IMG/VR virus record: IMGVR_UViG_2737471821_000001
Span: 1 to 37,988 of that record
DNA from: a virus
Lineage: Duplodnaviria > Heunggongvirae > Uroviricota > Caudoviricetes
Strand: one strand, 5' to 3'
Length of the DNA: 37,988 bases
In this document: positions 4,977-35,864 of the stretch, piece after piece
How the letters are laid out: each line of letters opens with the position of its first letter
Numbering within the stretch: position 1 is the first letter of the stretch
Program-made: the position numbers and the translations under genes
The notes under the pieces: model-generated
Told to the model about the DNA's origin: nothing
Database searches by the model: none
Seen by the model: the letters and a program-made list of their open reading frames with translations, nothing else

Positions 4977-5227
4977 GCGAATCAAAATGTCAGGTTAATA
5001 GCAATCAGATAGAACCATGTGCGGTACTGGCAAAAGCCCTTGAGCATGATGCTGAATACACGACGCGAAAAGGTCTGCTGATATACAAAATCTGGAATGA
5101 GAATTTAACTCGCGACCATGATTTGGTGATGTTGCGTTCCGGTGAATTTTCTAAATTACCAGTGCGGGTTTCATTTTGTCCGTTCTGTGGTGAAAGTCTG
5201 AAAACGTGGGAGAACAGAAATGAATGA
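4973..5227 (+). CDS. hypothetical zinc-ribbon protein
   Basis: GTG start overlapping the upstream stop, GGAGG RBS, and Cys pairs (C..C and CPFCG). Confidence 0.45.
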   Translation: MSESKCQVNSNQIEPCAVLAKALEHDAEYTTRKGLLIYKIWNENLTRDHDLVMLRSGEFSKLPVRVSFCPFCGESLKTWENRNE

Positions 5228-5531
5228 AATTAAAGAAATACCAGTAGTACGTGATGAATATGGCTGCTGGACGCATCCTGAATATGAAAAATTCTGTGAT
5301 GGTAGAGAACATATTTCAACGGAAGAGTTTAACGCATGGATGGAGGAAAATAATCTTCAATGGACCATCAGAACTATGGATGAAGATGATTTTAATCTGG
5401 ACGCAGATGGTCCCGATATTGCCTCTTGGAAACCGGAGCGCCCGGAAGGTGAAGGCTGGTTCATTGGTTCCATTCATGACACTGAAGATGGTCCTGTTTG
5501 TGTATGGCTGAGAAATAAGACTGAAGCATAA
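5220..5531 (+). CDS. hypothetical protein
   Basis: 103-aa ORF whose ATG overlaps the upstream stop (translational coupling). Confidence 0.5.
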   Translation: MNEIKEIPVVRDEYGCWTHPEYEKFCDGREHISTEEFNAWMEENNLQWTIRTMDEDDFNLDADGPDIASWKPERPEGEGWFIGSIHDTEDGPVCVWLRNKTEA

Positions 5532-5661: not shown

Positions 5662-6366
5662 ATGACTGAATTAACCAAAGAGCAATTAATCGAAGAAGCC
5701 AAATTAAAAATAGCGATTGCGAAATGCCACTCAAATTCAGGGATGGCGCAGGTAGAGGGCGAGTTATTCAAAATTGCACTGGCATCACTGGAAGCAGAGC
5801 CGGTGGCGTGGAAGGCAACCTTCACGCAAATTAACCATGAATGTAATACGTTCACCCTTATGAATTCTGACAAAGCAGAAATCGAACGGTGGGTGCGACT
5901 GCATAAAGTAGGTGATTTTCGGGCAGAAATAACACCGCTTTACGCAGCGCCGCCAGCGATGGTAGTGCCTGATGAAATGGATTTGCTTACCTGCCATCTC
6001 GACGGTGTAACTGAAACATATGCTGATGGCTGGAACGCCTGCCGTGTCGCCATGCTTCAGGCCGAAAACTTTCGGGAAAGTAAGAATTCGTCAACCAACA
6101 ATTTTCGGGAAATCTCGGAAACGTCAACCAGCTCTCCGGGAACTCCGGCTGGCTGGATAAGCTGTAGTGATGCAGTTCCTGCTGAATATTGCGATGTGAT
6201 TCTTCTCGATGATCTCGGGAATGTATTCCCCGGTTCCTGGGATAAGGTTTTTTGCCCCACTCGTGGCGGGAATAAGATGGCTTTTGTAGACAAAGACGGC
6301 GTCGAAGTAGAGAGCTCAACTCACTGGATGCCGCTACCAGAACCGCCGCAGGAGGTGAATCAATGA
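5662..6366 (+). CDS. prophage protein with C-terminal DUF551-like domain
   Basis: 234-aa ORF. The C-terminal segment (GWISCSD..THWMPLPEPP) resembles the DUF551 domain common in enterobacterial prophages. AGGAGG upstream. Confidence 0.5.
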   Translation: MTELTKEQLIEEAKLKIAIAKCHSNSGMAQVEGELFKIALASLEAEPVAWKATFTQINHECNTFTLMNSDKAEIERWVRLHKVGDFRAEITPLYAAPPAMVVPDEMDLLTCHLDGVTETYADGWNACRVAMLQAENFRESKNSSTNNFREISETSTSSPGTPAGWISCSDAVPAEYCDVILLDDLGNVFPGSWDKVFCPTRGGNKMAFVDKDGVEVESSTHWMPLPEPPQEVNQ

Positions 6367-6446: not shown

Positions 6447-6656
6447 AAACGGTTTGCGGGAAAAGGAGAGTTAAGTAGAATTGCTGCGGGTGCTTGAGGC
6501 TATCTGCCTCGGGCATGAACACCAAAGGCAGATAGAGAAAAGCCCCAGTTAACATTACGCGTCCTGCAAGACGCTTAACATTAATCTGAGGCCCAATCTA
6601 TGTCTCACAAATGTAGGTTAGCCTCTTACGTGCCGAAAGGCAAGGAGAAGCAGGCT

Positions 6657-6812
6657 ATGAAGCAGCAAAAGGCGATGTTAATCGCCCTGATCGTCATCTG
6701 TTTAACCGTCATAGTGACGGCACTGGTAACGAGGAAAGACCTCTGCGAGGTACGAATCCGAACCGGCCAGACGGAGGTCGCTGTCTTCACAGCTTACGAA
6801 CCTGAGGAGTAA
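6657..6812 (+). CDS. hok: Hok/Gef-family type I toxin (51 aa)
   Basis: MKQQKAMLIALIVICLTVIVTALVTRKDLCEVRIRTGQTEVAVFTAYEPEE matches the Hok/Gef/RelF family as recalled. AAGGAGAAG RBS. The track ORF starts at an in-frame upstream ATG at 6600. Confidence 0.8.
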   Translation: MKQQKAMLIALIVICLTVIVTALVTRKDLCEVRIRTGQTEVAVFTAYEPEE

Positions 6813-8155: not shown

Positions 8156-8694
8156 TTTACCCAACGAATACAGGAAAAAGCGGAGAACACCTTCGTCTCA
8201 CTACGCTGGAAAGTGTCTGGATTCAGGGAAAACTACGTATGTGGGGGCGCTGGTCATATATTGGTGGTGGCAGGTCAGGAAATATGTTCAATCAGTTGTT
8301 GGCATCCAAAAAATTGACGAAAACAGCCATCAATGAAGCCCTGCGCAGAATGAAAAAAGCGGGAATAGAGAAACCTGAGCTGGAAGCGTTTTTGCGAGAG
8401 ATGATCAATGGTAAGCAAAAGAGCTGGCTGGCGCATTGTACTGATGCAGAGGCGTTATGTATTGATCGGGTTATAAGTGAGGTGCTGGCAGAACATCCGG
8501 GATTGATTAGCATCCTCCGACAACGGTATGAGGGGCGAGGAATGAGTAAGAGAAGGATGGCCGGGTTACTAAACGAACAGTATCCAGAGTGTTGTTTTAG
8601 CACATGCGAAAAGCGAATTGCTAATTGGTTGGCTGTTGCTGAGTGTGCGCTATACATTCCCATGCGAGAATCATTTGCTCAAAAAATGGCTTGA
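8152..8694 (+). CDS. putative late-gene antiterminator (Q-like)
   Basis: 180-aa ORF at the end of the nin-like region, directly upstream of an intrinsic terminator and the late region. Cys-containing C-terminus; AAGGAGGG RBS. Assignment is positional. Confidence 0.45.
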   Translation: MIYPTNTGKSGEHLRLTTLESVWIQGKLRMWGRWSYIGGGRSGNMFNQLLASKKLTKTAINEALRRMKKAGIEKPELEAFLREMINGKQKSWLAHCTDAEALCIDRVISEVLAEHPGLISILRQRYEGRGMSKRRMAGLLNEQYPECCFSTCEKRIANWLAVAECALYIPMRESFAQKMA

Positions 8695-8778
8695 TTTCTT
8701 ACGCATAAACTGCTTCAATTCCGATACGCTTCGCAAAGCTGTATCGCGTGGCGAATTAATCGCATGAACTTCACCAGA

Positions 8779-8805
8779 ACCCGCCATTGAGCGGGTTTTG
8801 TTGTT
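8779..8805 (+). terminator. intrinsic terminator downstream of the Q-like gene (tR'-like)
   Basis: ACCCGC-CATTGA-GCGGGT hairpin followed by TTTGTTGTT. Confidence 0.55.
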
Positions 8806-10001: not shown

Positions 10002-10077
10002 GGCCCTTTAGCTCAGTGGTGAGAGCGAGCGACTCATAATCGCCAGGTCGCTGGTTCAAATCCAGCAAGGGCCACCA
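10002..10077 (+). tRNA. tRNA with CAU anticodon (Ile2/lysidine-type or Met; ileZ-like)
   Basis: Cloverleaf folded by hand: acceptor GGCCCTT/AAGGGCC, D-arm GCTC..GAGC, anticodon loop CTCATAA, T-arm GCTGG-TTCAAAT-CCAGC, encoded CCA. Confidence 0.8.
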
Positions 10078-10079
10078 TT

Positions 10080-10156
10080 CCGCCACTAGCTCATCGGGAT
10101 AGAGCATCAACCTTCTAAGTTGATTGTGCGAGGTTCGAGTCCTCGGTGGCGGACCA
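10080..10156 (+). tRNA. tRNA-Arg (UCU anticodon; argN/argO-like)
   Basis: Acceptor CCGCCAC/GTGGCGG, anticodon loop CTTCTAA, T-arm CGAGG-TTCGAGT-CCTCG, encoded CCA. Starts 3 nt after the previous tRNA. Confidence 0.7.
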
Positions 10157-10676
10157 TTCCATGCAAGTTTAGCTGGCAGCGCTATTAGCTCGGCGTAATA
10201 GGGCTATTCGTTAGGCTCTGTTAGTTCACCATATTTCGTCAAAACTTTTCTTTTCAACGCTACAGTTAACATTAATCATTACAAAAACTACTGTTGATGT
10301 AAGTCTTGTGAACTGTTATTTCTGAAGAGCTTACTGTGATTTATTGCGACAACGGAGTTAGCGTACTCCCAATTTGTTCATTTTTATGTTGTTTTTTTTC
10401 GCAATTTCCTGTGAGAAATCAGAAGTCTGGATGAAATAACATAAATTGTATGCGTCTGATACATATTTATACATATGTTTAAATATGAAAACTAATTAGT
10501 TTTTGATGTCATATAAATTATCGGTAATATTACTCTCGACCCGAAAGGCAGCAAGTTTCTGTTCACAGGGGTGTTACCCGCTGTCTTGCGGGTCATTGCT
10601 GGCATCCGTTTAATCATAATGAAGGGCTGTTATCAGTATCAGTGTCATTATTGTGGTTACGGAGGCCTGCTCTATA

Positions 10677-10747
10677 TGCAGGTATCGTATAGTGGTTATT
10701 ACATCAGCCTTAGGTTGGTAATGCCGGTTCGATTCCTGTTCTCCGCA
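10677..10747 (+). pseudogene. degenerate tRNA-like element related to the tRNA-Gly copy at 11461
   Basis: D-arm (ATCGTATAGTGGTTATTAC) and T-loop (GGTTCGATTCC) are conserved, but the anticodon stem cannot pair and the acceptor stem has mismatches. Confidence 0.4.
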
Positions 10748-11107
10748 ACTTCATTGTTTTTTGGACAAGTTTTTACAGCACTGGCGGTTTTCGTGAGGAA
10801 CAGATCTCTTTAATACCTTTATCGTCCCTCATTCTGTAATGGAGATCGGTTACAGACTCAGTGCTGTATTTTTTATGACACAGAAATGGCGCATTGCCCA
10901 CGAAAGGAAGCAGGATTTAGCGTGGAGTAACCAGTGATGCGCCATCTCTGTGTCGGAAAACATGAATTGGGGCGTTCCTCAGTGCGAGGGTGGTTTATAG
11001 AGTCGGTTTAGCGGGAAACCACAGTATCCACGTAAAGTGGAATACTTCGGGAGGCACCCGATGCCCCAAACCCAATAATCATTATAATATTGTGTCCTTT
11101 TATCGTT

Positions 11108-11175
11108 TTAGCCGCCGCCCCGGGCGGTTTTTTTATTCAGTTTTTATGGCTCGCCCTGGCGGGCCTTTTTCATTG
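11108..11175 (+). repeat. copy 1 of a ~65-bp terminator-containing direct repeat
   Basis: GCCGCCCCGGGCGGTTTTTTTATTCAGTTTTTATGGCTCGCCCTGGCGGGCCTTTTTCAT, two hairpin/T-run units; near-identical copy at 11780..11845. Confidence 0.6.
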
Positions 11176-11460
11176 TGTGCCGGAATTCTCAGCTGCCGGT
11201 GGGTGGTGATCAGACGGCAAAAGAGATAACTAAAGATTTTTAATTCGGTTATGATATGGCTTGTATATTTATGATACATATGTATACATATTTTCAAAAA
11301 TAAAAACCAAATATATTTTGGATATCTGAAAAACAGTTGTTAGTATTTTTGCGTCTGGAAGGTGTTTATCTTTTATGTTAGCAGGGGTGCTGTTTGCCAC
11401 CGGAAAGACCAGTGCGGGCTCTCTTGGTAATTCGTGTTATTCCGGGGGCCAGCACAGTAT

Positions 11461-11533
<73 letters not shown>

Positions 11534-11978: not shown

Positions 11979-12350
11979 ATGTCTGAACCCTTATCCGGTT
12001 CCGGTACGGCTGCGGCGCTCGGTGGGGCGACGGTATTTGGACTGTTTACCGGAACGGATTTCGGGATTGTGTTTGGTGCATTCGCCGGGGCGTTGTTTGT
12101 GGCGACGATACCCCAGCAGATTTCTGTCTGGCGTGTGGCGGCGCATTTTCTGGTGTCGTTTATCGTTGGCGTGCTGGGGGCGGATGTCATGGCGTCTTAT
12201 CTGGTCGAAAAACTGGGGCTACACAGCACATCTCTCGACGCGCTTTGCGCGGTACTGGTATCGGTGATTTCGGTGAAGATTCTGTCGTTCATCCACCAGC
12301 AGGATATTGCATCACTGGTATCGCAAACCATCCTGACGACGCAGTTCTGA
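11979..12350 (+). CDS. putative holin / small membrane protein
   Basis: 123-aa protein with Gly-rich hydrophobic helices (GGATVFGLFTGTDFGIVFGAFAGALFVA); GGGAGGA RBS. First gene of the late region, where lysis genes usually sit. Confidence 0.4.
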   Translation: MSEPLSGSGTAAALGGATVFGLFTGTDFGIVFGAFAGALFVATIPQQISVWRVAAHFLVSFIVGVLGADVMASYLVEKLGLHSTSLDALCAVLVSVISVKILSFIHQQDIASLVSQTILTTQF

Positions 12351-16421: not shown

Positions 16422-17352
16422 AGAATTAGCCGGACAGCACAGTTCGCAGCTCTCGTCCGTTCTTAAATCCGCAGTTGAAACCATCTCGTCAGACCAGGAA
16501 ATCACGTTCAGGCTCTATGTCCGGCAGGTTCTGCCGCTGGATGGTTTTGTCTATTGGGTTAATGCGGAAATCATCAGTTGCGATGAACTGTGTCGTCTGA
16601 ATATTGAGTCACCAACTCGTCTGAAAATCAAAGGCAGCCTGCATCGTCAGGTTATTGCGATTCAGGACGAGTCTGTCTCGAAGGATGTGAACAACATTAT
16701 TTTCACGCCTGTTCAGCAGGTTGATGATTTTAATGTGGAAAATCCCGATGCGATCTATCTCGGTGAGTACGGCGGCGTCCAGTTCGCTTTTTCTCGAATG
16801 GAGAGCCGCTATCAGCAGTCGGGTATTTTTCATTATCGCGGCATGGCGATTTTGCCAACCATGCGTTCCCAGATTATCGACTGCGAGGAGGATATCAGCG
16901 ACGAGCAGATCATATCCAACAGCATCCCGATCTGGCTGCAAATGAAAGATGCCGCGACCGTGTATCCGTCTTACCTGGTACCGCAGAACCTTCGCCCTCC
17001 GTATATCGCGGTGGATGTTCGCAACAGTATTCCTTTGCAGATGGCTCCCGTTGTTTTCGGTGGTGAGCGATTCCAGCTCGTCCAGGATTCGGTTCGCCTG
17101 ACGCTTTACGGATTCAGCAACAAAATGGCGCTGGATCTTGTCGACTCGGTGGTGAACAGGGCGCTGGAGGAGGAAAAGTTTGGTGTAACCAATATTCCGG
17201 TGGTTCAGGACGCAAAGTCGGGACAGGTTGAAATCAACGCTCTGGCGAAGAAAAAGATTGTCGATTTTGACGTGAATTACTACCAGAGCACCGCCCGGGA
17301 AATATCCCGGCAGTTGATTGAAAAAGTCATTTGTAAATATGAGGTTAAATAA
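16408..17352 (+). CDS. putative virion structural protein
   Basis: 314-aa ORF overlapping both neighbours, directly upstream of the sheath-like gene. Confidence 0.4.
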   Translation: MPSLEELAGQHSSQLSSVLKSAVETISSDQEITFRLYVRQVLPLDGFVYWVNAEIISCDELCRLNIESPTRLKIKGSLHRQVIAIQDESVSKDVNNIIFTPVQQVDDFNVENPDAIYLGEYGGVQFAFSRMESRYQQSGIFHYRGMAILPTMRSQIIDCEEDISDEQIISNSIPIWLQMKDAATVYPSYLVPQNLRPPYIAVDVRNSIPLQMAPVVFGGERFQLVQDSVRLTLYGFSNKMALDLVDSVVNRALEEEKFGVTNIPVVQDAKSGQVEINALAKKKIVDFDVNYYQSTAREISRQLIEKVICKYEVK

Positions 17353-27760: not shown

Positions 27761-28370
27761 AAAAATTCTCCCTGCTTATCCGTTTGTGCAGTACAGAGAT
27801 GATCCGAATGTTGTTGCGTTCTTTGATGCATACAATGAAATTGCTCAGGAATACCTCGATTCACTCAACAATCTGGCATTGCCATGCTGGACATCGGAAT
27901 CAATAACCGGGCAATTGCTGGACTGGATTGCTCTCGGGATTTATGGCGTTGAAAGGCCTTTACTACAGGTTTCCGAGGAGGCTATTGCACGCGGCGCATA
28001 CGATACCATTGAATACAATACAATCCCTTATGCGGCAATGCGGAATTATGTTCCGGGGCAGGCATCGTATGTTCCGGATGATTATTTCAAGCGAATATTA
28101 ACTTGGAATTTTTATAAGGCTGACGGTTCGCATTTCTGCATTGACTGGTTAAAGCGCCGTGTGGCACGGTTCATTCATGGGAAAAACGGAATAGACCCGC
28201 CGTTGCAGCACACTTTTGATGTGAGCGTGACTGTATCGGACAGTGTTTTTTCTATTCAGATACCAGAATATGGTGATGGTATAGGCTATTTTCTGAAAGA
28301 TGCCATTGACCAGAAATATGTAAAACTCCCTTTTATTTATTCCTATGCAACAACGGTGATTCAAAAATGA
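27744..28370 (+). CDS. putative tail/baseplate protein I-like (YmfQ/DUF2313-like)
   Basis: ATG at 27744 (the track ORF begins at 27636). N-terminus MQYLTEKILPAYPFVQYRDDPNVVAFFDAYNE resembles the gpI/DUF2313 family as recalled. Confidence 0.5.
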   Translation: MQYLTEKILPAYPFVQYRDDPNVVAFFDAYNEIAQEYLDSLNNLALPCWTSESITGQLLDWIALGIYGVERPLLQVSEEAIARGAYDTIEYNTIPYAAMRNYVPGQASYVPDDYFKRILTWNFYKADGSHFCIDWLKRRVARFIHGKNGIDPPLQHTFDVSVTVSDSVFSIQIPEYGDGIGYFLKDAIDQKYVKLPFIYSYATTVIQK

Positions 28371-29920
28371 TTCTTGGATTCGGAAATAACGTTGTTTCAG
28401 CACTGGCTGGTGATATTACGACGATTCAGACTGATATTCCGGTGATGCCGGGCACGGGAGCTAAATTTGCAAAATTGCTTTCTGCCGATTTTGAAAATAA
28501 ATCGAACGGGCAACGCGTCTATGCAAAAATTACGCTTACCGATAATAAAGAGTCTGCATTTGAGATTTGTCACCTGGTATCGGTAAGCGGTGATGTGCTG
28601 AAAGTCATTCGTGGGCAGGAAGGAACAACCGCGAAAGGTTGGTCCCTTAATGACGTTGTGGCTAACTTTGCCACGCGTGGATCGGAAAACTATTTCGTAC
28701 AGATAGCGCAGCTTCAGAGCGGTCATTATATTGCGGGTGTTACTGGTGGCACTGCAAACGCACTGACGCTGGAACTTCCCTCGACGTTTTTTGTTAATGG
28801 AGGTACAGATTGGACGCTACGAACTCCGATTATAGTTTTCCCCGTTCAGAACAATACCAACGCGGCGACACTTCAACTAACACTAGGCGGAAAGGTTCTT
28901 GGTACGTTCCCACTTTATAAGGGGAACAAGTCCGAGCTGGTAGCGAATGATATCATTAAGGGTATTCCTTTGATTTGCCTTCTTGATAGCGAGAAAAGCT
29001 ATTTCAGTGTGATAAACCCCGGCAATATCTATTCAGATTTTGATCTGCGATATGTAAAAAAATCTGGTGATTTGATGACCGGGGAGCTGAAAATACGTGG
29101 TGTTAATGCATTGAGGATTTTTAACGAGGCTTTTGGCCTTATTTTTCGCCGTTCTGAAGAGTGCCTGCACCTTATCCCTACTAGTGAAGGTCAGGGCGAG
29201 AATGGAGATATTGGTCCCCTGCGTCCGCTCACCATTAATTTGCGGACAGGAGAGATATCCATGTCGCATAAAGTGTCTGTTGGCGGTGGTTCTCAGGTCA
29301 ATGGTGCACTGGGTATCGGCGTTAAGAACGCGCTGGGCGGAAACTCAATTGCTTTCGGGGATAACGATACAGGTATAAAACAAAACGGCGACGGCATTCT
29401 GGATGTTTATGCGAATGGACAGCATGTATTTCGTTTCCAGAATGGTGTGGCGATAGCGTTAAAAAATATTCAGGCCGGAAATGCTAAAAAATTCACGTTA
29501 TCCAGCGCCAACAACTCCACGAAAAACGCAACGTTTAATTTATGGGGTAATTCATCCCGACCTGTAGTTGCAGAGCTTGGTGATGATTCCGGCTGGCATT
29601 TTTACAGCCAGAGAAATACCGATGGCAGTATCACATTCGCTGTAAACGGACAGATGACCCCATCAAACTATGGAAATTTCGATGCCCGTTATCAGCAGCG
29701 AAATGGCGGCGTGCAGGATGTGCGCTATGGTTCCGAAATGTATTACAAACCTGGCAGCAATGTAATCTCCTGGACATATCACGCTCCTGCGGGACACGGA
29801 TTGTCAGGGATATCGATATCGGATACTGGTAAAAATTCAGCGGATAACGTCAACGGCGTGTATTACCGACCGCTTCAGAAACTGATTAACGGCACCTGGT
29901 ATAACGTGGCGAGTGTTTAA
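28367..29920 (+). CDS. putative tail fibre protein
   Basis: 517-aa ORF between the baseplate genes and the Tfa gene; Gly/Asn/Thr-rich C-terminal half. ATGA overlap with the upstream gene. Confidence 0.55.
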   Translation: MILGFGNNVVSALAGDITTIQTDIPVMPGTGAKFAKLLSADFENKSNGQRVYAKITLTDNKESAFEICHLVSVSGDVLKVIRGQEGTTAKGWSLNDVVANFATRGSENYFVQIAQLQSGHYIAGVTGGTANALTLELPSTFFVNGGTDWTLRTPIIVFPVQNNTNAATLQLTLGGKVLGTFPLYKGNKSELVANDIIKGIPLICLLDSEKSYFSVINPGNIYSDFDLRYVKKSGDLMTGELKIRGVNALRIFNEAFGLIFRRSEECLHLIPTSEGQGENGDIGPLRPLTINLRTGEISMSHKVSVGGGSQVNGALGIGVKNALGGNSIAFGDNDTGIKQNGDGILDVYANGQHVFRFQNGVAIALKNIQAGNAKKFTLSSANNSTKNATFNLWGNSSRPVVAELGDDSGWHFYSQRNTDGSITFAVNGQMTPSNYGNFDARYQQRNGGVQDVRYGSEMYYKPGSNVISWTYHAPAGHGLSGISISDTGKNSADNVNGVYYRPLQKLINGTWYNVASV

Positions 29921-29922
29921 CA

Positions 29923-30468
29923 ATGTTGCATTTAAAAAATATTACTGCAGGCAATCCGAAAACCGCAGAACAATATCAGATGACAAAACAACATGGTATC
30001 ACCTGGCTTTTTTCGGAAGATGACAAAAACTGGTATGAAGAGCTGAAAAATTTTGCCAGTGACACCATAAAAATGGTTTACACCGGAGACGGGCGCGTGG
30101 TTTGGGTCGGTAAGGATGTGACAGGCATTGAACCCCGTAACGCCAGTGTTATTGAAGTTCCTGATATTACCGCTAACCGCCGTATTACCGTGCCTGGTTA
30201 CTGGTTTTACCGCGACGATAAATTTGTCTTCGACTACAAACTTAAAGCGGAAGATGAGCGCGATGCCCTGTTACAACGGGTCAGCATCATGACCAGCGAA
30301 TGGGAAAAAGACCTGCTGCTGGGATTAATCAGTGACGACGACAGGGAGAAGCTGAAAGCGTACCGCATTTACGCGAAATCGCTGCAGGCGATGGATTTCA
30401 GCACCATCACTGATAAAACCTCATATAACGCCATTGAATGGCCCGTCTCTCTGGAAGCCTCTTCCTGA
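29923..30468 (+). CDS. tail fibre assembly protein (Tfa family)
   Basis: 181-aa protein downstream of the fibre gene, with a Tfa-like C-terminal region (DERDALLQRVSIMTSEWEKDLLLGLISDDDREKLKAYRIYAKSLQAMDFS). Confidence 0.65.
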   Translation: MLHLKNITAGNPKTAEQYQMTKQHGITWLFSEDDKNWYEELKNFASDTIKMVYTGDGRVVWVGKDVTGIEPRNASVIEVPDITANRRITVPGYWFYRDDKFVFDYKLKAEDERDALLQRVSIMTSEWEKDLLLGLISDDDREKLKAYRIYAKSLQAMDFSTITDKTSYNAIEWPVSLEASS

Positions 30469-30491
30469 TTTAATTTATCGCGAGAAAAACT

Positions 30492-31225
30492 ATGTCTGTA
30501 GTGATATCAGGTGCACTGATTGATGGCGCAGGCATCCCCATGTACGGATGCCACATAACTCTGAAATCCCGGGTAAACACCTCAGAGGTGTGATGCGCAC
30601 AGTTGCCGATGTGGTGACAGGAAACTGTGGTGCAGGCGCAGCAGAGCGCGAAACAGCACAGGGACGAGGCGCAATGGATAGTTGATGATCTGAAGGGAAG
30701 CAATGCTTCCACGACAAAAAAGGTCTGGCGCAACTCTGTAGTGATACAGACAACGACAGCGAAGAACTGGCAGCCACGCCAAAGGCTGTCAAAACCGTCA
30801 CGGACGAGACGAAAACAAAAGCGCCACTGGACAGCCCTGCATTCACCGTCACGTCAGAACTTATCGCCGTGGGAAAGGATGCCAGAAAGCGGGAAATCGA
30901 GGTGTGGAGCACAGAACAGGAAGCGCAGCCGTTCACGTTCGAATGGAACGGTCGCACCTGGAATGCTGGCCCCGACTCAATGGCTCGTCTTTATCCGGCA
31001 GTAATGGCATCAAAGTCTGACACAGCGCGAAAAACCATGGTATGGGGCGATGCGGAAAACCAGCAGGTGAAGCTGTCAATGCCGGAACCGGAAGAACTGG
31101 CAGCAGCAATGGCGCAGGCTGTTGTTGAACGCAATGACGAGATTTATCGCCGTCAGCGAGAGAAGAAAGAAGCGTTAGACACTCTGGAGGATTTAGATGC
31201 GATACGAGCATTTAATGTTGAGTAA
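30492..31225 (+). pseudogene. degenerate lambdoid side-tail-fibre (Stf)-like gene remnant, frameshifted
   Basis: ORF opens with MSVVISGALIDGAGIPMYGCHITLKSRVNTSEV then a stop at 30591, resembling the lambda Stf N-terminus. Another frame carries ATPKAVKTVTDETKTKAPLDSPAFT, resembling an internal Stf motif. Reading shifts between three frames. Confidence 0.5.
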
Positions 31226-31396
31226 CGAATAGGTCGCAGTGAGTTGTTCTGGTATCTGAAGAATGAGGCTCCGGTTGCTGGCTGCAGTCGGAGGTTTATG
31301 ATGTGTACTCTCACATTGTTGAAGAAATCAATTGCGCAATTGGAGAGCAGGAACGTAAGAAAACAAGAGAAAGTCTACAATCGCTTGTAGGGTGTC

Positions 31397-31439
31397 ACTT
31401 CTTGATTTTTTCATAAATTTTATGATAAAATCAAGAAGT
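31397..31439. promoter_or_regulatory. 43-bp near-perfect palindrome (candidate operator/promoter) upstream of the two-gene cargo operon
   Basis: ACTTCTTGATTTTTTCATAAA-T-TTTATGATAAAATCAAGAAGT, one mismatched pair; contains TTGATT and TATGAT hexamers. Confidence 0.5.
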
Positions 31440-31461
31440 AAAAGTGATGGGAGAAACTTTC

Positions 31462-32133
31462 ATGAATATGCCTCATTGTGTTCTGCATACAGGAATTGAT
31501 TCGGATTTTGTACTTAGTAAACTGGGCTTTACAGAAAATGATATTCGCGATGCGTTAATGTCTGCTTTATACGAGCGACGCAAATCCAGTAAGCTCCACC
31601 CTAAAGTGGATGCTGGATTCCGCTTTTGGAGTGAGATGGTTGCCGCGCTTCGCCGTATTCTGATTGGTAAGGGTAACGGCTGGTCTTCTGAAGTAGTCAA
31701 TCGCATGGAAATGGTCGTTAATTCAAGCAAAGGGGTTAATCTGATTATTACCTCAGGTGACGGACATACCGGGCGTCCTGATGGATTGCCTAAAACCAAA
31801 AATGCAAAGGGAGAGGCAACTCGCTCGATTGTTCACAACAATCCGGGTACATTCGATATGTTCCAAGCAGATACCTTACATTCAGGCAAAGCTGAGATCA
31901 CGCCGATAGATAGCACCCGAACTTATATCGTTCTGTATTATTATGATGCGGCAAATAAAGAAATTCGCTGTGAGGTGTCGTATCCGGTAGGGATGGTGAA
32001 TCAGGACGGATTTGCCAGAGTAAGCGCGTGGAGTGAGCGAATTATTTTAGCTCCTCTGCAATTTGAAGGTGCGGATATTTTCCCTGAACAGGATTTTGAT
32101 GATGACATATCAATTTCAGTTGAAAGCAAATGA
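31462..32133 (+). CDS. hypothetical protein, upstream partner of the HTH-ImmA gene (candidate effector/toxin)
   Basis: ATG at 31462 with GGGAGA RBS (the track ORF begins at a GTG at 31444). 223 aa, no family recognised. Stop overlaps the next start (ATGA). Confidence 0.5.
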   Translation: MNMPHCVLHTGIDSDFVLSKLGFTENDIRDALMSALYERRKSSKLHPKVDAGFRFWSEMVAALRRILIGKGNGWSSEVVNRMEMVVNSSKGVNLIITSGDGHTGRPDGLPKTKNAKGEATRSIVHNNPGTFDMFQADTLHSGKAEITPIDSTRTYIVLYYYDAANKEIRCEVSYPVGMVNQDGFARVSAWSERIILAPLQFEGADIFPEQDFDDDISISVESK

Positions 32134-33236
32134 GTAACACTGTTGATGATGTCAAACGTCTTTTTAATCCGTCTCGACTAAAGCTAGCGCGGATCAGACG
32201 CAAACTGACCTTGGCAGAACTGGCGAGGCGAACCGGGTTATCTAGTCGTATCGTAATTGAATACGAAAAAGATTATTGTCTTTATGCACCCACGGCAGAG
32301 ACGGTACGCGCATACGCTAGTGCTTTAAATTATCCAGAGGCTTTTTTCTTTGGCGATGATGTTGAAACAATTGATCCATTGACTGTTTCATTTCGTTCAT
32401 TACGCACAACAAAAGCTGCTGACCAGCATGCGGCAATTGGTGCAGGTGCTTTAGGGGTTATGCTTAGCGATTATTTTAATGCTCGCTTTACTCTTCCTTC
32501 GCCTCAATTGCCGAATCTCCGTGGAAGTGAGCCTGAGGTCGCTGCCCAAGCGATACGCGAGGCTTGGGGGATTGGTAAGAAGAGTATCACCAATGTTGTT
32601 CATCTACTTGAGAAATTTGGAGTTAAGGTGTTCTGGCTTTCAGAGGAAACAGCGAGTATTGATGCTTTTTCGTTCTGGAAAGATGATGTCCCTTATATCT
32701 TTCTTAACACACGCAAGTCAGGTGAACGCAGCCGTTTTGATGCCGCACATGAATTGGCTCACCTAGTACTTCATCGTCAAGGGGAAGTCAAAGGGCAGGA
32801 TGCTGAGCGTGAAGCGGATGCTTTTGCTTCTGCATTTCTAATGCCTCAGGAAAACGTGATGGCCGTTAAGATGGTGGTCCCGACGTTTGATAAAATTGTG
32901 CAATTGAAATCACTCTGGAAAGTTTCGGCTATGGCCCTGATTGTCAGAATGCGCAATCTAAATATGCTGACGGAATGGCAGTATAATAGTTTGATACGTG
33001 ATGCGACGGCAAAGGGGTATCGAACCGGCGAGCCGGGGGGAATTGAGCGCGAAAGATCACTCGTTATAGAAAAAATGATGACTGCTCTGGCTGGAGACGG
33101 CATTTATCTGGCTCAGTTGAGTGATGAGCTTAACGTACCTCTCGATGAATTGAGTAGTTTGCTTTATGGAGTTGCGGCAATTAGTGGCGGAAATAGCAAA
33201 AGAACACCATCAAGGGCTTCGCTCCGACTAGTATGA
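32130..33236 (+). CDS. fusion of HTH-XRE DNA-binding domain and ImmA/IrrE-type zinc metallopeptidase (COG2856-like)
   Basis: N-terminal HTH (LKLARIRRKLTLAELARRTGLSSRIVIEYE) and central HEXXH motif (AAHELAHLVLH). Confidence 0.7.
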   Translation: MSNTVDDVKRLFNPSRLKLARIRRKLTLAELARRTGLSSRIVIEYEKDYCLYAPTAETVRAYASALNYPEAFFFGDDVETIDPLTVSFRSLRTTKAADQHAAIGAGALGVMLSDYFNARFTLPSPQLPNLRGSEPEVAAQAIREAWGIGKKSITNVVHLLEKFGVKVFWLSEETASIDAFSFWKDDVPYIFLNTRKSGERSRFDAAHELAHLVLHRQGEVKGQDAEREADAFASAFLMPQENVMAVKMVVPTFDKIVQLKSLWKVSAMALIVRMRNLNMLTEWQYNSLIRDATAKGYRTGEPGGIERERSLVIEKMMTALAGDGIYLAQLSDELNVPLDELSSLLYGVAAISGGNSKRTPSRASLRLV

Positions 33237-33457: not shown

Positions 33458-33755
33458 CAAAAGAGTGGATTATCGTAGCTTATTGTTGTTGCTGATAACA
33501 CTTAACGCATTGAAAAATAAATAAAACTCTTACACCTCAGATGGTTGTGATTTTTGCCCTTACTTGTTCAGGTTGTATTGTTCTTTCTTACTAATTTCTT
33601 GATTTTGCGACATTTAAAAGCGACTCAATTCGTTATATGGCATCAGAAGAGTATGCGTCATGCCGGAACGCCCAGCATAAGAAATCTGATATAAAAAACT
33701 GTGGCGTGTATGGTACGGATTAGAGGGGAAAATGTCAGCACATTTGCGAAATGAA

Positions 33756-35498: not shown

Positions 35499-35725
35499 TG
35501 AATAAATCCTTTAGTTATTTTATTTGCCTTTTATCCCCATTTCGGGGAGTGAAAACATCCTAAAGGAGAAGTTCAGTTAGCCGATAAATATCATTTGTTA
35601 CGCCTTAAGTAAAACCTTAATCAAATAATTCCTCTGAAATGATAATAAGTCTGGTGAATGTATCGAAGATAATACATACAAAATAAAAATTATACTTTTA
35701 ATTTGCTATACGTTATTCTGCGCGG

Positions 35726-35836
35726 GTTATATGCCTTTATTGTCACAGATTTTATTTTCTGTTGGGCCATTGCATTGCCACTGATTTTCCAACATATAAA
35801 AAGACAAGCCCGAACAGTCGTCCGGGCTTTTTTTTT
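35726..35836 (+). ncRNA. micC: MicC small regulatory RNA
   Basis: Sequence GTTATATGCCTTTATTGTCACAGATTTTATTTTCTGTTGGGCCATTGCATTGCCACTGATTTTCCAACATATAAAAAGACAAGCCCGAACAGTCGTCCGGGCTTTTTTTTT matches MicC as recalled, ending in its intrinsic terminator; lies in the ompN-ydbK intergenic region. Confidence 0.75.
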
Positions 35837-35864
35837 AGAATTGGATAATCCTTATCCAGAGCAT

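Follow-up and report, generated by a model that had tools for sequence, protein, structure and literature searches.

Probable remnant of a two-gene second tail-fibre cassette behind the Tfa gene of a contractile-tail prophage at the Rac attachment site of Escherichia coli

Introduction

Which fibre gene decayed behind the Tfa gene of the prophage described here, and from what kind of phage did it come? The window, that is, the whole 37,988-nucleotide stretch of DNA that was analysed (IMG/VR record IMGVR_UViG_2737471821_000001), contains a series of broken reading frames at 30492-31225. The initial annotation, made from the letters alone, regarded them as frameshifted remnants of a lambdoid side tail fibre gene (stf), which it took for the original fibre gene, stranded on the acquisition of a contractile-tail module. 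Comparison with intact homologues supported the decay but not the origin. The relic is very probably the non-functional remnant of a two-gene second-fibre cassette native to contractile-tailed temperate phages of the Rac-SA53/pPE4/phiP27 type. The families represented in the relic (PF08400, PF03406, and PF14301) are already known, and the intact counterparts have been deposited and annotated in GenBank. Tail-fibre gene decay is common in prophages, and the process seen here is ordinary pseudogene decay.

Results

Chromosomal and prophage setting

The stretch belongs to an E. coli chromosome; five complete genomes, RM11911 among them, are 100% identical to it over the query region. Of the prophage, the right two-thirds lie within the window, ending at an att core that matches the one of Rac-SA53 exactly (33564-33589), beyond which uspF, ompN, MicC, and nifJ are found. 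The prophage occupies the Rac attachment site and its early genes are Rac-like. Compared with RM11911, about 8 kb are gone (the 3′-end of the holin gene, the endolysin, both terminase subunits, and the portal), and the prophage is defective anyway.

The relic is located 3′ of a baseplate-J/fibre/Tfa module that includes a tail sheath gene (17352-18689; phrog_205, E=1.3e-54) and also encodes a baseplate hub and a baseplate J/wedge protein. The gene of the 517-aa primary fibre (28367-29920) lies upstream of an intact tfa gene (29923-30468, + strand), whose 181-aa product is a tail fibre assembly protein (PF02413 Caudo_TAP, E=6.4e-22). Thus, the position downstream of a myovirus Tfa gene, as originally proposed, was confirmed by the PF02413 match and by the sheath of the same contractile-tail module. 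The tfa gene shows 94-97% nucleotide identity to those of C7, PapRG-04-4, and pPE4. It is followed by a conserved 23-bp tfa–stf spacer, TTTAATTTATCGCGAGAAAAACT (30469-30491, + strand), which is identical in P13-6, where the intact stf begins directly after it according to a base-by-base check, as well as in EC11 and in loci L013 and L014.

The Rfam scan of the whole window gave no match within 30400-31450, and elsewhere only sok, four tRNAs, and MicC were detected. Promoter and terminator predictions between 30300 and 31600 remained at chance-level counts, with one notable site outside the relic, beside a palindrome upstream of rmrT. A RosmerTA-like pair, representing defence cargo, lies downstream of the relic.

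Stf pieces and the five lesions

In P13-6, a prophage with P2-type tail genes, the same position is occupied by tfa, the 23-bp spacer, a gene for a 1,044-aa “prophage tail fiber N-terminal domain” protein, and a gene for a 195-aa DUF4376 protein. The window aligned to this intact stf and DUF4376 pair in four collinear segments of 84-96% identity (blastn, tblastn). In the blastn comparison, window positions 30400-30630 corresponded to 5001-5232 of the P13-6 locus (L003; 96%, one 1-bp gap), 30619-30653 to 5412-5446 (89%, no gaps), 30640-30856 to 5736-5953 (95%, one 1-bp gap), and 30842-31194 to 8431-8783, within the DUF4376 gene (84%, no gaps). The alignment to intact homologues suggested in the initial annotation was carried out and revealed two 1-bp deletions and deletions of 191, 303, and 2,492 bp, these sizes being measured against present-day long alleles (P13-6, Rac-SA53, and pPE4), not against the parent allele. 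The claim of a frameshifted and deleted Stf-type remnant at 30492-31225 was therefore borne out, with five lesions relative to six intact homologues.

The first piece (30492-30593, + strand) is the ORF MSVVISGALIDGAGIPMYGCHITLKSRVNTSEV*, comprising Stf codons 1-33 and a TGA stop at 30591-30593. It represents the start of the PF08400 anchor (“Prophage tail fibre N-terminal”), matching profile positions 1-33 of 134 with E=3.9e-11 and 43.5 bits (gathering cut-off 26.6). In lesion (i), one G is missing from GTGGTG between 30589 and 30590, and this creates the TGA at codon 34; this single-base gap was seen against the intact P13-6 stf and against all six intact homologues. Codons 34-47, VMRTVADVVTGNCG (30590-30631, + strand), are out of frame with the ATG and are 100% identical to residues 34-47 of P13-6 Stf in a different frame (tblastn). 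The PF08400 domain is consequently not complete in one frame: codons 1-47 are left, split by the 1-bp deletion with its TGA at codon 34, and a further stretch, residues 48 to ~110, is deleted.

Two adjacent deletion junctions follow at 30619-30650 (+ strand), as established by comparison with 5222-5232, 5412-5446, and 5730-5745 of L003. Lesion (ii) is the 191-bp deletion at the direct repeat AGGAAAnnGTGG (30619-30630), and lesion (iii) is the 303-bp in-frame deletion at the repeat AGCAGAGCGCG (30640-30650). Approximately residues 48-212 of Stf are lost to these two deletions, including most of the anchor domain and a coiled-coil-like region. The spacing of the segments around the two lesions does not differ between Rac-SA53 and P13-6 and agrees within a few bases in pPE4, while the first of these intervals is also equal in the short alleles of phiP27, C7, and PapRG-04-4. 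The gap spacing of lesions (i) and (ii) was the same against six of the six intact homologues. The 303-bp in-frame difference could be natural length variation rather than a lesion.

The ATG frame is regained in KQHRDEAQWIVDDLKGSNASTT (30651-30716, + strand; Stf residues ~217-240), which ends at lesion (iv), the loss of the G of ACAGAAAAAGG between 30716 and 30717. The next piece (30717-30856, + strand) covers Stf residues ~241-286 with the Phage_fiber_2 repeat (…LAATPKAVKTVTDETKTKAPLDSPAFT); in the 30725-31225 frame, PF03406 was recognized with E=5.7e-10 and 39.1 bits (cut-off 22). The Stf-like segments that had been placed in other frames were found again as tblastn matches to intact Stf-type fibres, with E values of 1e-13 to 1e-25 for ..VQAQQSAKQHRDEAQ.. 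(ORF 30627-31004) and ATPKAVKTVTDETKTKAPLDSPAFT (frame of 30725). Their assignment to frames needs correction, however: QQSAKQHRDEAQ lies in the reading frame of the ATG at 30492, to which it returns because the bases lost in lesions (i) and (ii) add up to 192 bp, and only the ATPKAVK segment is elsewhere.

Lesion (v), the 2,492-bp deletion, has its junction at 30842-30856 (+ strand), where the blastn segments ending and starting at L003 5939-5953 and 8431-8445 overlap. The site shows 15 bp of imperfect (~80%) homology (window, TTCACCGTCACGTCA; P13-6 stf, TTCACCGGCACGCCA; P13-6 DUF4376 gene, TTCACCGTCACGCCT). Frame arithmetic indicated that Stf residue ~286 is joined in frame to DUF4376 residue 64. 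All of Stf past residue ~286 is lost. Altogether, ~365 bp of the ~3.1-kb stf and 127 of the ~189 chaperone codons are retained. The three larger deletions are at short direct repeats of 10-15 bp; slippage during replication or recombination across short homologies probably produced them, and slippage probably also accounts for the single-base losses.

The DUF4376 chaperone part

The initial annotation noted an open C-terminal frame ending at 31225 and took it as part of the fibre gene. The frame is indeed open, from 30689 onwards, but 30842-31225 (+ strand) encodes the C-terminal 127 codons and the stop of a DUF4376-type tail-fibre chaperone, not Stf. The match to PF14301 extended over profile positions 3-104 of 106 (E=1.6e-13, 51.5 bits, cut-off 25), and the segment corresponds to about residues 64-189 of the separate DUF4376 gene (tblastn E ~1e-72 to 1e-79). 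Amino acid identity was 87% to the C7 protein and 77% to both Rac-SA53 tail4 and phiP27 L57. In an alignment of eight DUF4376 alleles (A1), the C-terminal two-thirds, which are strongly conserved, were seen to be retained in the relic, while the N-terminal ~62 residues of the chaperone are absent and Stf sequence stands in their place.

The DUF4376 protein gp27 of Alteromonas phage V22 was proved by experiment to be a required tail-fibre chaperone, and DUF4376 proteins of CJIE1-like prophages of Campylobacter were likewise shown experimentally to be tail-fibre chaperones (PMC7289586, PMC7882524, PMC10579305). These proteins have the same C-terminal domain family as the relic, and their genes are also located directly 3′ of the fibre gene they serve. 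However, they are needed for fibre function, whereas the relic has lost both the N-terminal part of the chaperone and the tip of the cognate fibre.

Intact relatives of the cassette

Intact fibre and DUF4376 pairs occur after the same tfa in phiP27 (L56/L57), Rac-SA53 (tail3/tail4), and pPE4 (gp69/gp70), and further ones in P13-6, C7, and PapRG-04-4, the last two being sister prophages at the same uspF-ompN-nifJ locus. The intact fibres are 474-1,061 aa long between constant ends. The gene order in phiP27, Rac-SA53, and pPE4 is primary fibre/Tfa, spacer, Stf-type fibre, and then a 187-188-aa DUF4376 protein. These three are called contractile-tail phages here on the basis of annotated sheath and baseplate genes and module similarity, not microscopy: tail sheath, tube, and baseplate are annotated in phiP27, while Rac-SA53 and pPE4 have ~95% nucleotide identity to the sheath- and baseplate-containing tail module of the window. 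In the literature, no report was found of the intact second fibre assembled onto contractile-tail virions.

The closest relatives of the relic genes are tail3/tail4 of Rac-SA53 and the copies in C7. Rac-SA53 (KU052037), C7/C3, and PapRG-04-4 share the prophage family and the tfa gene with the window, and Rac-SA53, C7, and PapRG-04-4 also share its chromosomal site; fibre codons 1-33 are 91-94% identical to the relic and the DUF4376 partner is 72-87% identical. A RosmerTA-like pair of the window's kind lies downstream in C7 and PapRG-04-4. The copies in these prophages are intact (fibres of 474-1,061 aa, chaperones of 187-189 aa), unlike the relic with its five lesions. In C7, the same locus of the same prophage encodes an intact fibre of 477 aa and a chaperone of 189 aa, together with a downstream gene pair of the window's kind. 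In phiP27 (Stx2e phage, NC_003356; L56/L57) and vB_Apl-pPE4 (gp69/gp70), codons 1-33 are 94% identical to the relic, and the second fibre followed by the DUF4376 protein comes directly after the contractile-module fibre/Tfa pair, as at the relic. Both copies are intact, and phiP27 differs in having a Mu/SfV-like tail module and a shorter, 490-aa fibre. The relic shares with the L56/tail3-type genes the MSVVISGALIDGAG… anchor subtype after tfa and the spacer, as well as the DUF4376 partner, and lacks their intact frame including the C-terminal receptor-binding part. Since the same junction and intact cassettes are found in these phages, the relic is therefore best regarded as a regular second fibre decayed in place.

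Origin of the fibre and alternative readings

An origin from a lambdoid, siphovirus-type side fibre, stranded when the contractile-tail module replaced lambda-like tail genes of a Rac-like prophage, has a certain appeal. The prophage is integrated at the Rac site, with an exact att core and Rac-like early genes, K-12 Rac carries the lambda-like lomR-stfR-tfaR at that chromosomal site, and lambda Stf (orf-401/orf-314 in lambda PaPa) and K-12 StfR have the PF08400 anchor family and the Phage_fiber_2 repeat, as does the relic. The Stf-like start with a stop after 33 codons, noted initially, is real insofar as the PF08400 match and the TGA are concerned, but relic codons 1-33 are identical to the N-terminus of lambda Stf/StfR (MAVKISGVLKDGTGKPVQNCTIQLK…) at only 16 of 33 positions (~45-48%), versus 30-31 of 33 (91-94%) for the fibres of phiP27 (L56), pPE4 (gp69), Rac-SA53 (tail3), C7, and PapRG-04-4, and the label “lambdoid” had to be abandoned. 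When the intact 134-aa anchor was compared with 50,697 phage records by tblastn, the 306 records with a match showed a bimodal distribution of identity: 97-99% was reached only in phiP27, vB_Apl-pPE4, and Rac-SA53, and all others, lambdoid and Stx phages, remained at or below 52%, typically 44-46%, over residues 1-106. The proposed tblastn searches with lambda Stf and Rac StfR/TfaR were run and did not favour the lambdoid assignment. Lambda orf-401 matched the fibre repeat only (residues 360-395; E=6e-8 in the whole window and 4e-11 in the region), K-12 StfR matched the same generic repeat only (E=1e-8; repeat matches 36-39 aa long), and lambda orf-314, lambda Tfa, and TfaR gave no match to the window or the region, nor was any N-terminal match obtained. 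In lambda and K-12 Rac, the tail module is non-contractile, the fibre genes come after J/lom, and the chaperone is a Caudo_TAP Tfa; the relic lacks this setting, its partner is a DUF4376 gene rather than a lambda-type Tfa, and no lom, J, or other siphovirus remnants were found in its flanks. Moreover, the exact tfa–spacer–stf junction with an intact fibre is present in phiP27, pPE4, and altogether three kinds of contractile-tail module, against the idea of an original fibre left behind. With the fibre repeat as the sole tblastn match and no N-terminal or Tfa similarity, the lambda/K-12 Rac origin was rejected as very improbable. The Rac site, the K-12 lomR-stfR-tfaR genes, and the PF08400 kinship make an older exchange of anchors between siphovirus- and myovirus-type temperate phages plausible; an anchor-domain exchange that far back is possible, but it is a separate claim. 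Judged by sequence comparison, the subtype appears to travel with contractile-tail modules, and the relic fibre does not appear to be a lambda leftover.

The fused frame raised the question of whether the relic still yields a product. It runs without interruption for 178 codons, from 30689 to its stop at 31225, in both the window and the EC11 relic alleles, which differ by ~20% in their 3′ half; the 2,492-bp deletion is in frame, the DUF4376 domain is retained complete, and PGAP annotates two CDSs: one of 33 aa, named a “prophage tail fiber N-terminal domain” protein, and one of 166 aa, named a “DUF4376 protein” and starting with CTG at 30725. An expressed and selected protein of 166-178 aa (30689/30725-31225), such as a truncated chaperone or a decoy, is nevertheless unlikely. 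No ATG, GTG, or TTG start codon was found in this frame before 30869, which leaves the annotated CTG, and no convincing Shine-Dalgarno sequence was found for the fused ORF. Translational coupling is lost, as the ORF lies 3′ of a gene with a premature stop, and neither the first ~62 residues of the chaperone nor the fibre to be served is left. Synonymous and non-synonymous codon differences in the DUF4376 part were about 1:1 in relic-versus-intact and intact-versus-intact comparisons alike; therefore, there is no sign of relic-specific selection. Presumably no functional fibre or chaperone is made from the relic, and expression of a functional product from the fused frame is improbable. A sequencing or assembly error in a really intact gene could also be considered, as single-base indels are typical of errors and one of them is beside an A run. 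Three deletions of ~3 kb in total are, however, beyond base-calling error, and the relic is identical in five independently assembled complete genomes, with the five lesions present in ten more that have diverged elsewhere. The initial annotation had named a single intact frame as the finding that would speak against decay; with the relic in 15 complete genomes, this is not so, and error was rejected on the multi-genome agreement as having practically no probability.

Discussion

Returning to the preferred reading, decay of a second-fibre cassette, the proposed cassette would consist of an Stf-type fibre, with the PF08400 anchor and the Phage_fiber_2 repeat, and a DUF4376-type fibre chaperone, placed as in the intact relatives directly after the primary fibre/Tfa pair. 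The 1-bp deletion giving the TGA at codon 34, the 191-bp and 303-bp deletions, the second 1-bp deletion, and the 2,492-bp deletion would have inactivated it, the last one eliminating the entire receptor-binding portion of the fibre together with ~62 residues from the N-terminus of the chaperone, and fusing both genes in frame. The two CDSs predicted by PGAP would be better annotated as a single pseudogene relic of two genes. Intact, the cassette may give the phages a second receptor specificity, by analogy with lambda Stf and the published work on DUF4376 chaperones.

The closest analogy for the event is the stf frameshift of lambda PaPa, where the side fibre is split into two ORFs (orf-401/orf-314) and an accessory side fibre was lost. 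Hendrix and Duda reportedly observed in 1992 that laboratory lambda lacks Stf owing to a single-base frameshift. By this analogy, loss of an accessory fibre need not kill the phage.

A broader role for the cassette can be proposed only tentatively. It is possible, though we would not yet favour it, that the lambda-Stf-family anchor fibre serves as a second receptor-binding fibre on the contractile-tail baseplate, that the cassette is swappable, and that relics are retained landing pads. The left arm of such a cassette would be the 3′-end of tfa with the anchor domain, and the right arm the C-terminal domain of DUF4376, with the hypervariable fibre tip and the chaperone N-terminus between them. 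Via the relic pads, fibre tips or defence cargo, such as RosmerTA in the window or the YadA-like gene of EC11, might be exchanged or restored by recombination. The fibres of 474-1,061 aa between constant ends, the independent collapses between the arms, and the post-lesion mosaic breakpoints inside the DUF4376 domain described below are consistent with a swappable cassette. A modest question raised by the locus is where the lambda-Stf-family anchor docks on a myovirus baseplate.

Spread of the relic and related relics

The tfa-to-stf junction was detected in 119 of 5,426 complete E. coli genomes. The contiguous relic was present in 15 complete genomes, being identical in five, while the same five lesions occurred in the ten that diverged elsewhere; among the junction matches listed, the 1-bp-shorter span was found only in the 15 genomes with at least 99% identity. 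The relic has existed for long enough to spread. The EC11-type relic has all five lesions and is ~99% identical up to ~30936 and ~80% identical thereafter. Its 3′ side consists of a different DUF4376 3′-end followed by a tfa fragment and a YadA-like gene, and the 3′ part of the window, from 30892 onwards, is 96% identical to C7. As the lesions are common to both alleles and the 3′ part of the window is C7-like, the right flank was evidently exchanged after the lesions had been formed, by recombination inside the DUF4376 domain. The conserved ends of the relic are thus still substrates of recombination.

Two further chromosomal loci, ydfJ and yecD, harbour Mu/SfV-like prophages with a relic of independent type; in these, a different deletion at the repeat ATGGCGCAGGC links stf codon ~14 with the final ~120 bp of the DUF4376 gene. 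Collapse of the cassette by short-repeat deletion recurs in different prophage lineages, and the locus is a clear case of such repeated collapse.

The right prophage end and its cargo

At 33564–33589 of the window, the att core that is annotated in Rac-SA53 (TTGTTCAGGTTGTATTGTTCTTTCTT) recurs as an exact 26-bp copy, which marks the right end of the prophage; therefore, both the fibre relic and the neighbouring RosmerTA-type gene pair are located inside the prophage. The pair occupies 31444–33236, between the relic and attR, and consists of two genes. Its 229-aa protein matched RmrT of PADLOC (E = 1.3e-59), while the 368-aa protein, which carries an HTH and a Peptidase_M78 domain, matched RmrA (E = 1e-142). 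The pair is a candidate anti-phage defence or toxin–antitoxin cargo at the prophage end. The prophages of E. coli strains C7 and PapRG-04-4, like the window, contain a gene pair of the RosmerTA kind, whereas in EC11, which carries the sister relic, a YadA-like gene is found in its place.

Just upstream of rmrT, a near-perfect 43-bp palindrome was identified at 31397–31439, consisting of two 21-nt arms that are 95% complementary and separated by a single nucleotide. It overlaps the sole sigma-70-like site of the region (31402–31431), and this palindrome is possibly the operator for the HTH protein RmrA.

Comparison with related prophages

The prophage of strain RM11911 is 99.8–99.97% identical to that of the window apart from approximately 8 kb absent from the latter, which comprises the 3′-end of the holin gene and the genes of the endolysin, the small and large terminase subunits and the portal protein (the last named “anti-CBASS Acb1 family” by PGAP). 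Relative to RM11911, the deletion junction maps to approximately 12319–12322, at a GGT(T)ATC microhomology, and the window prophage is incapable of packaging by itself. Within the baseplate module, a 391-aa endonuclease-like gene (25318–26493; phrog_4225, E = 4.7e-149) is labelled “type I restriction endonuclease” by PGAP, whereas at this position Rac-SA53 and vB_Apl-pPE4 have an antirepressor gene together with one or two small genes encoded on the other strand; compared with these relatives, the segment is a moron swap midway through the tail operon.

The record of the latter phage (PP818812.1) was deposited as “Actinobacillus phage vB_Apl-pPE4” with Actinobacillus pleuropneumoniae as host. 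This assignment looks doubtful, as the record shows about 95% nucleotide identity to the E. coli Rac-type prophage of the window across 86% of an 18.8-kb structural region.

A second, independent kind of cassette relic was detected in two comparison loci, L013 (5193–5343) and L014 (5173–5320), where about 42 bp of stf is fused to the final approximately 120 bp of the DUF4376 gene with ATGGCGCAGGC as the junction repeat. These relics lie in Mu/SfV-like prophages, located at ydfJ and yecD, and an evenly spaced sample of matching genomes suggests that relics of this type occur in dozens of E. coli genomes.

RNA genes

Rfam models identified the sok antitoxin RNA adjoining hokD (6488–6662), four tRNA genes in the late region of the prophage (10002–11532) and the MicC sRNA adjoining ompN (35723–35843).
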